From the NCBI GenBank assembly GCA_012690745.1, contig GCA_012690745.1_4086.2: 64,000 nt of DNA. One strand, written 5' to 3'. The stretch is from a phage. This document shows positions 22,797 through 37,848 of this stretch, piece after piece (the first letter of the stretch is position 1; each line of letters starts with the position of its first letter). The translations under genes were made by a program, and so were the position numbers. Below the pieces are notes generated by a model. The model searched no databases, was not told the DNA's origin, and saw only the letters and a program-made list of their open reading frames with translations.

Positions 22797-23011
22797 AACA
22801 TTTAAGTAATTACGAGAAGAATAAAATTATCGTTGCTGCAATAAACAAATATTTTACACTTCCTCACACAGAAGGTTTATGTGTAAGGGAACACAGGATA
22901 AACACCACCGATATACGCATGATGGCTGTACTGGGGACGAACTTTCAGGAAGAGTATGTTGTTGCACACATAGTTGCCCTCACTGATTTAATAAGGGACA
23001 AATGCAAATGA
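22793..23011 (+). CDS. small paralog family member 6
   Basis: ATGA overlap; motif LGTNFQEEYV. Confidence 0.6.
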   Translation: MKHLSNYEKNKIIVAAINKYFTLPHTEGLCVREHRINTTDIRMMAVLGTNFQEEYVVAHIVALTDLIRDKCK

Positions 23012-23316
23012 AACACTTAACTGATGATGAATTTGAAACTATAATTCGTAAACTAACCCCCATCACAAGGATAGTCTACGGTGACCCCAGCCTTACATGG
23101 AACCAAATGCGAGCTAAAGTTAATGAGCTATGGTTGCTGTACTTTATGGGGACTCAATATCAAGATAAGTTTTGCACAGAATATATCGAACAATTAACGA
23201 ATGTTATACAGGATAAACTAGATGATTATTTGCTCACAAAACATGAAGATTTTATCAGGAGTGGAGTATCAGACTGCCCTCTTCTCTCTTCTAAACACCC
23301 TCCGCACGAACAATAA
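23002..23316 (+). CDS. small paralog family member 7 (C-terminally extended)
   Basis: Motif FMGTQYQDKFC; the usual stop at the ctATGA junction is absent, so frame reads on ~30 codons over next gene. Confidence 0.5.
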   Translation: MQMKHLTDDEFETIIRKLTPITRIVYGDPSLTWNQMRAKVNELWLLYFMGTQYQDKFCTEYIEQLTNVIQDKLDDYLLTKHEDFIRSGVSDCPLLSSKHPPHEQ

Positions 23317-23494
23317 ACTTTATAATTCCCGTGAAGCTGATATCGTCAACGCTGATGTATATCTTAATAAATTCATAGGGACTAACTATCAAGAACTGTT
23401 CACTCTACGATATATCGCTGCATTGAGAAACGAAATATCAGATAAAACCCGTCAAGCCAGAAGAGAATGGAATAAACAATGCGACACAGACTAA
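23222..23494 (+). CDS. small paralog family member 8
   Basis: Starts MII like other members; motif FIGTNYQELFT. Confidence 0.55.
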   Translation: MIICSQNMKILSGVEYQTALFSLLNTLRTNNKLYNSREADIVNADVYLNKFIGTNYQELFTLRYIAALRNEISDKTRQARREWNKQCDTD

Positions 23495-23727
23495 ATCACA
23501 AAATGTATTGTAAACTATTACAGACACTGGCACAGAAACACTATGACACGGTATCTGGAATATTACCCTATGATATCATGCGTTTACTTCACTGTGAGGC
23601 CGAGATGCTTGTACTGATGACAGGCACTGATAAAACAGCAATCGCCAGATCGATAGAGCAATATATTGATGCACACTGCCAACACATGAGAACCGAAATC
23701 TGGAGGAAAGAGAATGATAATTCTTAA
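23479..23727 (+). CDS. small paralog family member 9 (divergent)
   Basis: N-terminus fits family; motif region divergent (MTGTDKTAIA). Confidence 0.5.
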   Translation: MRHRLNHKMYCKLLQTLAQKHYDTVSGILPYDIMRLLHCEAEMLVLMTGTDKTAIARSIEQYIDAHCQHMRTEIWRKENDNS

Positions 23728-23929
23728 TGAGTATCAGTATCATTGGAGGTTACAAACTATCAAATCAAAAGTGTATAGTATTGTGTTAAACAAATCTATT
23801 GCACAAGAGGACAAATGTGTTATAATAGCTGAAATGAAGTTGGGTGTATTCGTAGGGACAAACTATCAAAACATCTACACTGACGTATTATTAAGTTCCT
23901 TACGTAACAAGGTGGTATCCAAAATATGA
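23714..23929 (+). CDS. small paralog family member 10
   Basis: Motif FVGTNYQNIYT. Confidence 0.6.
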   Translation: MIILNEYQYHWRLQTIKSKVYSIVLNKSIAQEDKCVIIAEMKLGVFVGTNYQNIYTDVLLSSLRNKVVSKI

Positions 23930-24144
23930 GAAATTTACAAGGCTTTGAATACATCAGACTCCTGAAAACATGTGGAAGCAGAAGGAGAATGATATCAAGC
24001 GATAAGAGCATCCAAGCTAACCTTAAGCACGCACTAGTAACTGAACTTTATGTAGGTGCACTCTTAGGCACAAACTATCAACAAATGTATGTAGATCTAT
24101 GGATTGACGCTCTACAGAAAGAGGTTAAAAGTAAATGCAAATGA
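23926..24144 (+). CDS. small paralog family member 11
   Basis: ATGA overlap; motif LLGTNYQQMYV. Confidence 0.6.
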   Translation: MRNLQGFEYIRLLKTCGSRRRMISSDKSIQANLKHALVTELYVGALLGTNYQQMYVDLWIDALQKEVKSKCK

Positions 24145-24353
24145 TTAATTTAAGTAAAGACGAATTTTATGTTATACTGGCGAAAACTTATCCAGCACGT
24201 AAGGCCGTTTATGATAGTCACATTATTGAACCCTCAAAGAAGTTGATTTTAGTAAATGAGATAAAGATGCTTTCAGTCTTAGGAACAAACTATCAAGAGA
24301 ATGCTGTACTGATGTTAATTGATGCCCTCCAGCGAGAGGTTAAACGTAAATGA
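24135..24353 (+). CDS. small paralog family member 12
   Basis: Motif LGTNYQENAV. Confidence 0.6.
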   Translation: MQMINLSKDEFYVILAKTYPARKAVYDSHIIEPSKKLILVNEIKMLSVLGTNYQENAVLMLIDALQREVKRK

Positions 24354-24580
24354 AAATGATTCATTTAACTTACCATGAATATCAAAAACGTTTAAATGCA
24401 TCCAGAGATATAAGGATTCAAATATTCAATAACAAAAGATTGAAGCCTGATATCAGGAAAATCAAAATCATAGAAGCCGTGTTGTGCAACTTCCTAGGGA
24501 CTAACTATCAGGAAGGTAAGGTAGAAAACTATCTTATAGAACTCATGAATAGTATTGAAAATAAATGTAAGGGTAATTAA
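24350..24580 (+). CDS. small paralog family member 13
   Basis: ATGA overlap; motif FLGTNYQEGKV. Confidence 0.6.
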   Translation: MKMIHLTYHEYQKRLNASRDIRIQIFNNKRLKPDIRKIKIIEAVLCNFLGTNYQEGKVENYLIELMNSIENKCKGN

Positions 24581-24581
24581 C

Positions 24582-35794: not shown

Positions 35795-35814
35795 TTTTGT
35801 GATGGGATGGGATA

Positions 35815-35982
35815 ATGCTGATGAAAGAGTTATTTGAAGATCAGTTCAATACATATGTGGATAATATTCTTTATTCCAGCCGTGCTAGTCAACGAGGAAA
35901 TCGTGCTTACAATATAGATTACCTATTAGTGGTGCTGAGTTCACAGTACACCTACGCTGTACAGAGGACATATTATGAATAA
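35815..35982 (+). CDS. hypothetical small protein (55 aa; not in ORF track)
   Basis: ORF in gap; 3' end overlaps next start. Confidence 0.35.
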   Translation: MLMKELFEDQFNTYVDNILYSSRASQRGNRAYNIDYLLVVLSSQYTYAVQRTYYE

Positions 35983-36178
35983 TTTTAGAGATGTTGCTAA
36001 GGAGAAGTTCAAGTGCAGTTTAGATTTTGGGTTAAATGATTTTCTGACATGCACAATGTACAGGAATGATGATTATGAGCAATCCGTAATTTCGTTGCAC
36101 AGATATTTCGAAATAATTTACGCAAGATATCTTAGAAGGTTAGAGGGAATAGGGGATTGGAATTATGATTACGTTTGA
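35975..36178 (+). CDS. hypothetical small protein
   Basis: Track ORF. Confidence 0.4.
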   Translation: MNNFRDVAKEKFKCSLDFGLNDFLTCTMYRNDDYEQSVISLHRYFEIIYARYLRRLEGIGDWNYDYV

Positions 36179-36389
36179 AGAGCCGGAAGTGGCATATTGC
36201 TTTAGTGTGAAAGGTTTTGAATTCATGATGGATTCTATTTTGAAGGATACATATTTGGTTCAGATTGCAGTTGCAGATAATACAGATAATGCATTACAGC
36301 GAGTATTGAATATATACGAGAGGACGAGTCGAAGGCTTTGTGCAATGAAAAGGATTGAAGAAATCAAGGTTTCTAGGCTGAATAAATAG
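36165..36389 (+). CDS. hypothetical small protein
   Basis: Track ORF. Confidence 0.4.
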   Translation: MITFEEPEVAYCFSVKGFEFMMDSILKDTYLVQIAVADNTDNALQRVLNIYERTSRRLCAMKRIEEIKVSRLNK

Positions 36390-36585
36390 AGACGTTTCAT
36401 TTTGACAGGCCGCAGGGGGGTCAAAAAAATTTCCGCTGAAAAACATGCTAAGGTATATGTTTAATATAAAGTTTTATATTGTGTTTTTCAGAGTACAGTT
36501 CATGTTTCCTGAAACAAAAAATACCCCGCCGCCGAACGTTCTCCTTATATTGGAGTTTACCTTATTAATTATAGTAGAGATTAAG

Positions 36586-36963
36586 ATGGAAATAAAATAT
36601 AATGAATTTTGTGCAAGGACATGGATGTACACTGGTGAGTTAGTTACGCACTCTAACTTATACAAGGGTGATTTAAACTACGCTAGGGACAAGATTTTAA
36701 AGTACTGGAATGCTGACTTTTATTTGATGGATTTTAGTACTGGGTTTAGGGGTAAAGCAACCGAGATGTTGGACTATACAGTACTTGATGATGCTACACT
36801 GTTTCAGGCGGCATTAGTATTTGATAAGAAGTACATCTGTACATTAGAAGAGATGATTGAATTACAGCGTAGAATTAAATGTATTCACAGGGAATGTATA
36901 GATATCTGGTGCAGTACTGGTGAAGATGATTTTTGTAATCATTTCAATCTAGGGGAAGTGTGA
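36586..36963 (+). CDS. EYFQ-motif paralog family member
   Basis: Trimmed from track 36445 to ATG 36586 (RBS GAGA); motif DATLFQAALVFDKKYICTLEEM. Confidence 0.55.
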   Translation: MEIKYNEFCARTWMYTGELVTHSNLYKGDLNYARDKILKYWNADFYLMDFSTGFRGKATEMLDYTVLDDATLFQAALVFDKKYICTLEEMIELQRRIKCIHRECIDIWCSTGEDDFCNHFNLGEV

Positions 36964-37124
36964 TGGAATTTGATTTTTTAATATCAGTACATTCTTTTAA
37001 GCACAGTTATCAGTACTTTTGTAATTTAAACAAAGGTGATTTGATTATGGATACAGATACAGAGGCTGTATACAGTTCTAATATTCTGTACAAATTCAGT
37101 ACTAATCTGAAGGAGATTTTATGA
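36963..37124 (+). pseudogene. truncated N-terminal duplicate of the 37492 paralog (53 codons)
   Basis: MEFDFLISVHSFKHSYQYFCNLNKGDL is near-identical to N-terminus of 37492..37848 but ORF ends after 53 codons. Confidence 0.45.
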
Positions 37125-37492
37125 AAAAAGAAATTAGAATTCAATTCGGTATGAGGAAAAAAGAGGTCATCTGTACACTGAATCATGCGGTCGTGGAAAG
37201 CCTTGGTGGTGCATTACAAAAATTCTCCCATTTTGTTCTTGTACTATATGAAAATGGGTCTTTTAAAATCTTCACATATGATGATTCAAAAAATTACCGT
37301 AATGATTTTGTAAATCTGACAGTACTGTCAGAAGAGGAATTCTTTCAGGAAAGTACTGTCTGGAATTTACCAGGAGCACCAATTGAATACGTCCGTGCTA
37401 CACAGGCAGAAATGATCAAAGTAATGCAGAACTATCCAGAAGATTATATGACTAAGTTTCCTGAATCTATTTATGTAGAGGTTGAGTACTGA
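37121..37492 (+). CDS. EYFQ-motif paralog family member
   Basis: ATGA overlap; motif SEEEFFQESTVWN. Confidence 0.55.
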   Translation: MKKEIRIQFGMRKKEVICTLNHAVVESLGGALQKFSHFVLVLYENGSFKIFTYDDSKNYRNDFVNLTVLSEEEFFQESTVWNLPGAPIEYVRATQAEMIKVMQNYPEDYMTKFPESIYVEVEY

Positions 37493-37848
37493 TGGAATTT
37501 GATTTTTTAATATCAGTACATACTTTCAAGCACAGTTATCAGTACTTTTGTAATTTAAACAAAGGTGATTTAATGCACAGTGCAAATGAGTATATTCATT
37601 ACACTCAGGGTAAATTTACATTCATTGATTACAGTTCATTACAGTATCCACACCAAGATATGCCGGACTATACATTAATGGATACCGCAGAACTATTCCA
37701 AGAATCATTAGTATTTGATAAGAAGTACTTGTGTACATTTGAAGAAGTTATTGCAATACAAAATGAAATGAAAGAGTATGCTGCTTTGCATAAACCCAAT
37801 GCAAGTATTAATCAAGAATACAAATTCAATTTAGGAATTCAAGAATGA
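37492..37848 (+). CDS. EYFQ-motif paralog family member
   Basis: Motif TAELFQESLVFDKKYLCTFEE. Confidence 0.55.
   Translation: MEFDFLISVHTFKHSYQYFCNLNKGDLMHSANEYIHYTQGKFTFIDYSSLQYPHQDMPDYTLMDTAELFQESLVFDKKYLCTFEEVIAIQNEMKEYAALHKPNASINQEYKFNLGIQE

Follow-up and report, generated by a model that had tools for sequence, protein, structure and literature searches.

In the 64,000-nucleotide stretch of phage DNA analysed here (the window; contig GCA_012690745.1_4086.2 of assembly GCA_012690745.1), positions 23002-37560 belong to two tandem arrays of small paralogous genes whose gene number, gene borders, and alleles differ from one related phage to another; the arrays very probably represent two genus-specific multigene families that have been reshaped by misaligned recombination, by exchange between phages, and by slippage. 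A first-pass annotation had described four oddities in this region, namely a stop codon lost at a gene junction, a segment repeated near another junction, short repeats altering the frame at a third, and a truncated gene copy, and had read them as footprints of ongoing unequal recombination or slippage. The variation found between relatives supports both processes in kind, while the interpretation goes too far for the first junction and in calling the process "ongoing". The contributions of this analysis are detail at the level of single junctions, the frequency of each variant across isolates, a hybrid gene, and an estimate of the age of the duplications.

Source Phage and Organization of the Arrays

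On the basis of its sequence, the window is assigned to a 121Q/PBECO4-like jumbo coliphage (Asteriusvirus). The 14.6-kilobase (kb) stretch matched 36 phage records, all from jumbo phages of Escherichia or Salmonella that belong to the 121Q/PBECO4 group, the closest being SHEFM2K (96.1% identity) and G17 (95.5%); the match to 121Q (93% identity over 93% of the query) spans gp319-gp375 and identifies the orthologous locus. The homologous stretch was taken from nine relatives (SHEFM2K, G17, CRJP21, PBECO4, 121Q, UB, SD-15, UE-S1, and Turkey3), and each junction segment was also queried against all phage records. The open reading frame (ORF) map of the window stretch contains plus-strand genes only, packed end to end.

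The first array (family 1; 21745..27753, plus strand), delimited by the ORF list, a family alignment, and a hidden Markov model (HMM) scan, consists of 27 contiguous paralogs of about 70 amino acids (aa), numbered w01-w27, which lie head to tail and are mostly joined through overlapping stop and start codons. The members share the pattern M-x-x-L-(T/S)-x-x-E-Y ... L-G-T-N-Y-Q-E-x-Y-V ... K-(L/CK), with the motif LGTNYQEeYV, and their proteins are 20-35% identical between units; the domain is four-helix, without metal-binding cysteines. Three of them match PHROG 4148 (E 1.2e-21, 9.3e-27, and 6.9e-22), each alignment covering positions 1-72 or 1-73 of the 74-position profile. Gene overlaps range from 4 to 74 nucleotides (nt), and the 4-nt ATGA overlap is found at 11 of the 26 junctions, the other 15 being non-canonical.

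The second array (family 2; 27743..56093, plus strand), defined from the ORF list, the family analysis, and PHROGs, comprises about 40 genes of 100-200 aa; position 37560 falls inside it, and the region under study spans the junction of the two large paralog arrays. In a set of 50,697 phage genomes, both families occur only in one and the same group of 34-36 Asteriusvirus records, and the family-1 profile, searched against 5.8 billion proteins, returned E. coli or Asteriusvirus as its sole named sources, together with many unnamed metagenome contigs. With the HMM built from the 27 family-1 genes, 31 members are detected in the window, none of them on the minus strand. Four of these lie outside the main array, among family-2 genes: one pair at 29057-29508, which the Salmonella phage SD-15_S21 lacks (341-bp deletion; bp, base pairs), and two weak matches at 42066-42495; such outliers imply past transposition or rearrangement between both arrays.

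Variation in Gene Number between Related Phages

An identical array in all relatives, which would speak against recombination, is not what was found: array structure differs among isolates, the number of family-1 matches in the same stretch ranges from 25 (121Q) to 32 (PBECO4), and the differences include insertions and deletions (indels) of unit length. According to the ortholog map, two extra members lie between w06 and w07 in G17, CRJP21, PBECO4, SD-15, and UE-S1, and w14 is absent in UB and 121Q; w12 is absent in 121Q and UE-S1, w17 in CRJP21, PBECO4, and SD-15, and w19 in UE-S1 and 121Q, and an extra w23-like gene is found in PBECO4, UB, and Turkey3 (the Turkey3 copy deriving from a 206-bp insertion). 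Across the nine pairwise alignments the large family-1 indels measure 206-269 bp, corresponding to one unit, or 309-378 bp, corresponding to two, and a 134-bp event in SD-15 fits neither range. These unit-length differences separate genomes that are 89-96% identical. The words deletion and insertion, as used for individual events, denote the presumptive direction of each.

Boundary homology was scored as the longest stretch of exact identity lying no more than 60 nt from the breakpoints. It measures 44 nt at the 529-bp event, 22 nt at both the 269-bp and the 209-bp event, 17 nt at the 378-bp event (G17, CRJP21, PBECO4, and SD-15), and 12 nt at the 220-bp event; in most unit-length family-1 events the two breakpoints have exact runs of 7-22 nt in common at equivalent positions, with 47-78% identity over the surrounding 120 nt. 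Eight of the 12 distinct events fall at most 30 nt from a gene junction, versus 28% expected (p = 0.006), a value that is approximate owing to alignment placement within repeats.

Errors of sequencing or assembly in a repetitive region are a barely credible source of the four oddities first noted. Mis-assembly of tandem repeats can occur and single-base junction changes may be homopolymer errors; against this, independent genomes reproduce all four features exactly or nearly, which rules out sequencing error, SHEFM2K being 100% identical over 23150-23330, G17 99.75% identical over 24500-24900, SHEFM2K and G17 100% identical over 36800-37700, and Turkey3 possessing the same hexamer duplication as the window. 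Moreover, the paralogs are only 60-75% identical in DNA and are too diverged for assembly collapse.

A Hybrid Gene Formed at a Common Box

The clearest unequal-crossover product of the region lies just upstream of 23002. The gene w06 (22793..23011, plus strand), when compared with PBECO4, is a direct product of this kind, a hybrid gene resulting from the 378-bp deletion. Its codons 1-58 correspond to the PBECO4/G17-type gene at locus position 2414 (96.5% identity to PBECO4 2414-2586) and its last 14 codons to the gene two units downstream (locus 2852-3010; ...HIVALTNLIRDKCK), with 87% identity to 2965-3010. The join falls inside the common box CACACATAGTTGCACTCA, the 378-bp difference being placed at window position 22966; breakpoint alignment locates the crossover box, CACACATAGTTGC(C/A)CTCA, which codes for HIVAL and is common to both parent paralogs, at 22965..22982 (plus strand). 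G17-type genomes hold both parents of w06 with a full-length paralog between them, the downstream parent (2852-3010) being 5'-truncated.

Lepore-type hybrids arise by unequal crossing-over between the human delta- and beta-globin genes. The likeness consists in an in-frame fusion in which one paralog supplies the N-terminal part and a second, farther downstream, the C-terminal part, the units between them having been deleted; in contrast, w06 is a phage gene, its homology tract is much shorter (17 nt), and the paralogs involved are 50% identical.

Duplicated Segments

The segment that had been noticed inside one gene and again upstream of the next member is the edge of a 269-bp tandem duplication that is variable among relatives, although its two copies lie 6 and 3 nt away from the positions first given. 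The first copy of this 18-mer, AGTATTGAAAATAAATGT, is within the 3' end of w13 (24551..24568, plus strand) and the second, an exact match, stands between the stop of w14 and the start of w15 (24820..24837, plus strand), 269 nt apart, with a chance expectation of 0.01 matches. The 18-mer sits in a 226-nt repeat of 74% identity with a spacing of 269, and this repeat and the relatives define the two copies of the duplication unit, w14 and w15, at 24520..25057 (plus strand). The border of the unit falls within the preceding gene, w13, about 60 nt short of its 3' end, and therefore an out-of-frame copy of the w13 tail is found between w14 and w15, the 18-mer being its best-preserved portion. Among the phage records of 28 relatives, about 18 carry two copies of the unit and about 10 carry one (UB, 121Q, Turkey3, and about seven others); in UB the w13 tail is fused directly to the w15 body, the switch occurring within AACATG(A/C)AAATGAT.

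The second duplicated segment is an 85-nt direct repeat, found by repeat search, whose upstream copy, R1 (36961..37045, plus strand), forms the 5' end of a 53-codon ORF and whose downstream copy, R2 (37490..37574, plus strand), supplies that of the full-length gene 37492-37848. R1 and R2 are 96.5% identical with a spacing of 529 nt, and R1, the short ORF (36963..37124, plus strand), and a 123-aa family-2 gene of another subtype (37121..37492, plus strand; PHROG 13866 subtype, E 2e-41) together make up a 529-bp unit. This unit is present in 11 phages, and 20 others hold exactly one repeat copy, the record span being 322 and not 851.

The short ORF does match the N-terminus of the 37492 product, 26 of the first 28 residues being equal, but the earlier description of it as a truncated duplicate does not hold up well: as judged from relatives and alignment, it is more probably a paralog of the 37492 gene that is old and has shrunk, because R1 and R2 are only 84-86% identical in 121Q and CRJP21, against 94% in Turkey3 and 96.5% in the window, SHEFM2K, and G17. 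The ORF is intact in every genome that carries it (SHEFM2K, G17, CRJP21, Turkey3, and 121Q). The pattern suggests an old paralog whose 5' end would have been homogenized in the lineage of the window. In 121Q the ORF is 21 codons longer, owing to 63 extra in-frame nt (L005 15705-15767, about window 37079) that are bounded by an imperfect 15-nt direct repeat, TAATRTTCTGTRCAA; the 63-nt difference is a further deletion between short repeats. The extra residues of 121Q include ...KEFQNS..., possibly a remnant of the F-Q core of family 2.

It is highly improbable that the 529-bp unit is instead a cassette brought in by a mobile-element or homing-type insertion that duplicated an 85-nt target. The repeat-insert-repeat layout would be in keeping with such an event, as would the presence of a PHROG 13866 gene beside neighbours of PHROG 15629, and phage A4 matches only positions 231-651 of the query for this segment (window ~37080-37500), without the left flank or R2. 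However, the unit has no endonuclease, integrase, or transposase and encodes just the 53-codon ORF and the PHROG 13866 paralog, with no Pfam domain; the repeat belongs to the coding sequence of a family member, whose 5' end it forms, and is not a target site; the R1/R2 identity in 121Q and CRJP21 implies that the arrangement predates those genomes; and the short ORF shows internal decay in the form of the 63-nt indel.

Changes at the Gene Junctions

Change of the slippage type, the other process proposed for these arrays, is seen at the junctions of the sub-array w17, w18, and w19 (25327..26030, plus strand), identified from repeats and relatives, in which the junctions are of the GTAAATGCAAA type and the units measure 220 and 226 bp. 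The repeats reported here, ATGCAAAATG at 25547 and ATGCAAATGCAAATG at 25773, are both present, and ATGCAAATG is a recurrent junction motif with seven matches in the window, six of which are in the family-1 array versus 1.25 expected. Comparison with relatives shows that (ATGCAA)2, at the w18/w19 junction (25773..25784, plus strand), is an in-frame 6-nt tandem duplication found in the window and Turkey3 only, a single copy being present in SHEFM2K, G17, CRJP21, PBECO4, SD-15, and UB. The extra hexamer is the sole young, polymorphic slippage-type change at this place; the idea that it was unique to the window genome was rejected, since Turkey3 carries the same duplication. UE-S1 has a different 6-nt gain at the junction neighbouring w18/w19. 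The alteration of the junction frame is, by contrast, not a recent loss of a stop: in w18 the stop was lost through AAAT versus AAAAT, a run of three or four A common to relatives.

The junction first cited as a scar is that between w07 and w08. The ORF of w07 (23002..23316, plus strand; ORF list and junction table) encodes 104 aa, of which the family domain ends at 23223 and a C-terminal tail of 31 codons reads through into w08, overlapping the next member. The read-through is confirmed, but the single inserted base to which it had been ascribed is rejected: the junction at 23216-23225, AACTAGATGA, reads AAACTAGATGA versus the canonical AAACTATGA carried by five other junctions, a difference of two extra bases, with no indel among relatives. 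Because its length is the same in all nine aligned relatives, this junction is an old, fixed variant and not a recent footprint. The G17-type allele, CTAAATGA, likewise reads through, with a stop 51 nt earlier due to substitutions, and it is substitutions only that set the position of the w07 stop among relatives. Allele switches are found near this junction, in UE-S1 from the window type to the G17 type at ~23221 and in UB to the PBECO4 type at ~23290.

The constancy of the w07/w08 junction, the A-run difference common to relatives in w18, the synonymous divergence (dS) of 0.76-1.8 between paralogs, and the fact that 15 of 26 junctions are non-canonical anyway would all agree with ordinary point-mutation divergence of very old paralogs on which recombination no longer acts. 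As an explanation of the junction oddities this is nevertheless quite unlikely: units are present or absent between genomes of 89-96% identity, the w06 crossover lies in a common box, the 529-bp unit is swapped for one repeat in 20 phages, and four-gamete patterns and fine mosaicism are observed; the explanation is contradicted for the repeated 18-mer segment, for the 53-codon ORF with its repeats, and for w06.

Mosaicism, Coding Constraint, and Age of the Duplications

Exchange between phages, together with misaligned recombination, is consistent with the mosaic structure of the locus. Between window positions 21300 and 39700 the closest relative switches every 400-800 bp and identity swings from ~65% to 100%; the local best matches are 121Q at 21.7-22.5 kb (99%), Turkey3 at 25.3-25.7 kb (99.5%), and SHEFM2K/G17 beyond 36.9 kb (100%), and identity to the same genome drops to 65-80% next door. 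When w14 or w17 is paired with the 529-bp unit, each pair shows all four combinations of presence and absence. From these combinations and the mosaicism it follows that exchange between phages spreads the variants or that the same events recur. Alternative alleles at one array position are 65-85% identical, and Turkey3 is 55-68% identical at 33.7-34.5 kb.

The array genes are real coding sequences, because about two thirds of the small indels (120 of 181, in a tally that is non-independent between genomes) are multiples of three and the ratio of nonsynonymous to synonymous divergence (dN/dS) between orthologs is 0.31-0.38 in all nine comparisons. Between genomes dS is 0.07-0.25, and the youngest paralog pairs, w14/w15, w17/w18, and w18/w19, have dS values of 0.76-0.86 with ~74% nucleotide identity; since paralog dS is far above genome dS, the duplications are much older than the splits between the genomes. 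The sole near-identical stretch is the 85-nt repeat of R1 and R2. The notion of an ongoing process is therefore retained for deletion, exchange, and micro-slippage and is not extended to new duplication, and the present variation is best explained by the former three and not by fresh amplification.

Several observations weigh against misaligned recombination as a general explanation. Near-identical tandem copies are missing, so that recent duplication is undocumented and only loss, exchange, and micro-slippage are seen, and the w07/w08 junction shows no length polymorphism. Several indels have only 0-4 nt of boundary homology, and none was found for the 218-bp event of CRJP21, the 239-bp event of 121Q, the 134-bp event of SD-15, the Turkey3 alignment of the 269-bp event, and several second-family events; these cases may be due to inexact alignment where the flanks have diverged, or to another mechanism that is illegitimate. 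Presence and absence of units could also spread by exchange instead of arising repeatedly. Finally, the single repeat of PBECO4/SD-15 looks chimeric, being of the R1 type at two sites and of the R2 type at a third, yet it is maybe an ordinary allele; its use as a proven chimera was withdrawn, as R2 of 121Q has the same two bases.

Proposed Mechanism

Neighbouring units would be able to recombine through short conserved stretches that they have at equivalent positions, namely the junction/start motifs AAACTATGA and AAATGCAAATGA, the GTNYQE core, and boxes in the C-terminal part, of which HIVAL is an example. Whole units would be lost or gained when neighbours undergo copy-choice or homologous recombination in misaligned register, and a crossover within a gene would generate a hybrid gene or an out-of-frame copy of a neighbour's tail. 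As regards the enzymology, the probable agent would be RecA-like, recombination-dependent replication directed by the phage itself; both a RecA-like recombinase and a single-stranded DNA-binding protein (SSB) are encoded in this phage group and appear in the virion proteome of phAPEC6 (PMC7247149). Homologous exchange among co-infecting relatives would reshuffle the alleles at each array position, and replication slippage at tiny tandem repeats would give rise to changes of 3-12 nt that preserve the frame. Since the stop codon of most genes overlaps the start codon of the next, an alteration of 1-2 nt at a junction would displace the stop and generate a C-terminal tail that continues into the following gene; such read-through tails, which lie outside the folded domain, appear to be tolerated. 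The resulting base-level picture is one of genes lost or fused at short boxes, of alleles swapped every one to four genes, and of in-frame slips at junctions.

Possible Role and Comparison with Known Systems

The function of the array proteins is a more interesting question than the scars. None of the 10 family proteins scanned against Pfam scored above the cut-off, with one sub-threshold RINGv match, and the absence of Pfam matches in the arrays together with generic fold matches only leaves them with no function assigned. The arrays lie ~19-39 kb from the start of the CRJP21 record, which apparently includes terminal repeats; an early host-takeover or anti-defence role may be guessed from the small size of the proteins, their variability, and this left-end position, and any biological role of the variation itself would be equally presumptive.

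Whether the arrays are a selected diversification locus, in which junction boxes act as hot spots for shuffling host-takeover or anti-defence cassettes as in T4-type hyperplastic regions, is rather doubtful. Gene-scale mosaicism with alleles of 65-85% identity at one position, the enrichment of breakpoints at junctions, a dN/dS of ~0.35, which is relaxed for phage genes, and the restriction of the families to one genus would be compatible with it, and the position at ~19-39 kb in CRJP21 would suit early expression. On the other hand, Pfam gave no match and the folds are generic, overall dN/dS is below 1, the placement of breakpoints in repeats is partly an alignment choice, and the genes overlap without intergenic promoter/stem-loop cassettes, the promoter scan yielding 97 promoter-like sites versus 109 expected and thus no enrichment. 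An extended form of the same idea, in which ~70 genes (~10% of the genome) constitute a cassette-shuffling locus with conserved swap boxes and the family-2 F-Q core is a processing or recognition signal, is unlikely; if true, the conserved junction and core boxes would be kept so that co-infecting Asteriusviruses can swap and resize their gene set.

T4-type hyperplastic regions, reportedly described in 2010 by Arbiol and co-workers and by Petrov and co-workers as shuffled through promoter/stem-loop (PeSL) cassettes, resemble the arrays in that blocks of small genes of unassigned function vary by recombination at short boundary sequences; in contrast, the window genes overlap and the recombining sequences are paralog coding and junction motifs, not mobile regulatory cassettes. 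PeSL-like regulatory cassettes were dropped as candidates, in view of the overlapping genes and the lack of promoter enrichment. Poxvirus "genomic accordions", which Elde and co-workers are said to have described in 2012 for the amplification of K3L, share with the arrays a change of copy number by recombination between repeats in a large double-stranded DNA virus that encodes its own machinery for replication and recombination. In accordions the copies are nearly identical and recently amplified, and under selection their number rises and falls in the course of a few passages, whereas the units of the window are old (dS at least 0.76) and diverged, and only contraction and exchange are seen; an accordion in the sense of recent adaptive amplification was rejected, as near-identical young copies are missing.

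Unequal recombination in tandem families is a textbook process, and both the array and its origin by duplication have already been reported. The array of 121Q was noted by Hua et al. 2017 in mBio (PMC5646251), who interpreted it as tandem duplication, and the phAPEC6 paper repeats the point (PMC7247149); the 121Q array is the same locus as in the window, with ~30 members, but the 2017 account consists of one sentence, without junction analysis, copy numbers in isolates, hybrid genes, or the F-Q family (PMC5646251). The present data support tandem duplication as the published explanation for the growth of jumbo genomes, and add that the duplications are old and that the present process is mostly contraction and exchange. 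A lineage-specific expansion of ~35 zinc-ribbon genes in Bacillus phage G was termed "unprecedented" by Iyer et al. 2021 in a study of 224 jumbo phages (PMC7824862); there, too, a single family has expanded to a very large size in a jumbo phage genome, although the protein family is another one, and the Asteriusvirus arrays are not listed in that review. Asteriusvirus genome papers (UE-S1, Sharanji, fEgEco12, and CBB) hold nothing on the array locus.

Features of the Second Array and Flanking Genes

The hallmark of family 2 is an invariant F-Q within an acidic-(Y/F)-F-Q-x-S-L-V core, as in EEEYFQYSLVHD, and its members match PHROGs 13866, 15629, 9317, 19795, and 31297. An AlphaFold model of the family has a predicted local distance difference test (pLDDT) score of 87.5, with no Pfam match and no specific fold match, and no description of the array was found in the literature searched. 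The F-Q motif resembles 3C/TEV-type protease sites.

Large and small differences between relatives also occur within this array. UB has a 1241-bp insertion (L006 8706-9946) at window 28759, and Turkey3 a 915-bp insertion (L009 10963-11877) at window 30744 with 23 nt of exact boundary homology. Relative to the window, a 15-nt deletion and a 15-nt insertion are paired at 30022 and 30199, 177 nt apart, in SHEFM2K, G17, PBECO4, UB, SD-15, and UE-S1 and not in CRJP21 and 121Q; they may represent an alternative allele segment or a compensated shift.

The terminator scan returned nine terminator-like sites versus 6.4 expected, again no enrichment, and Rfam and tRNA scans of the window gave no match. 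A hairpin with a 9-bp stem followed by TTTTTT at 32424-32490 is the strongest plus-strand terminator-like element in the scanned 20.5-40 kb; an extended -10 promoter-like site matching at 11 of 12 positions comes directly after it, and the annotation of G17 places a terminator at the same position. The site is probably a transcription-unit boundary within the second array.

Annotation of the locus is uneven, with 47 features in PBECO4 and 41 in UB versus 68 in G17, many array genes being unannotated. With PBECO4 and UB having about half of the G17 gene list, this locus will inflate gene counts and numbers of "unique genes" in comparative papers on these therapeutic-candidate phages and distort comparisons of gene content. 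Five genes outside the arrays, at the right end of the window, were also scanned against Pfam; beyond the arrays lie, at 60891-61412 and 61409-61942, a Dam-type DNA N6-adenine methyltransferase (PF05869, E 7e-32) and a gene with weak, sub-threshold cytidylyltransferase-like matches.

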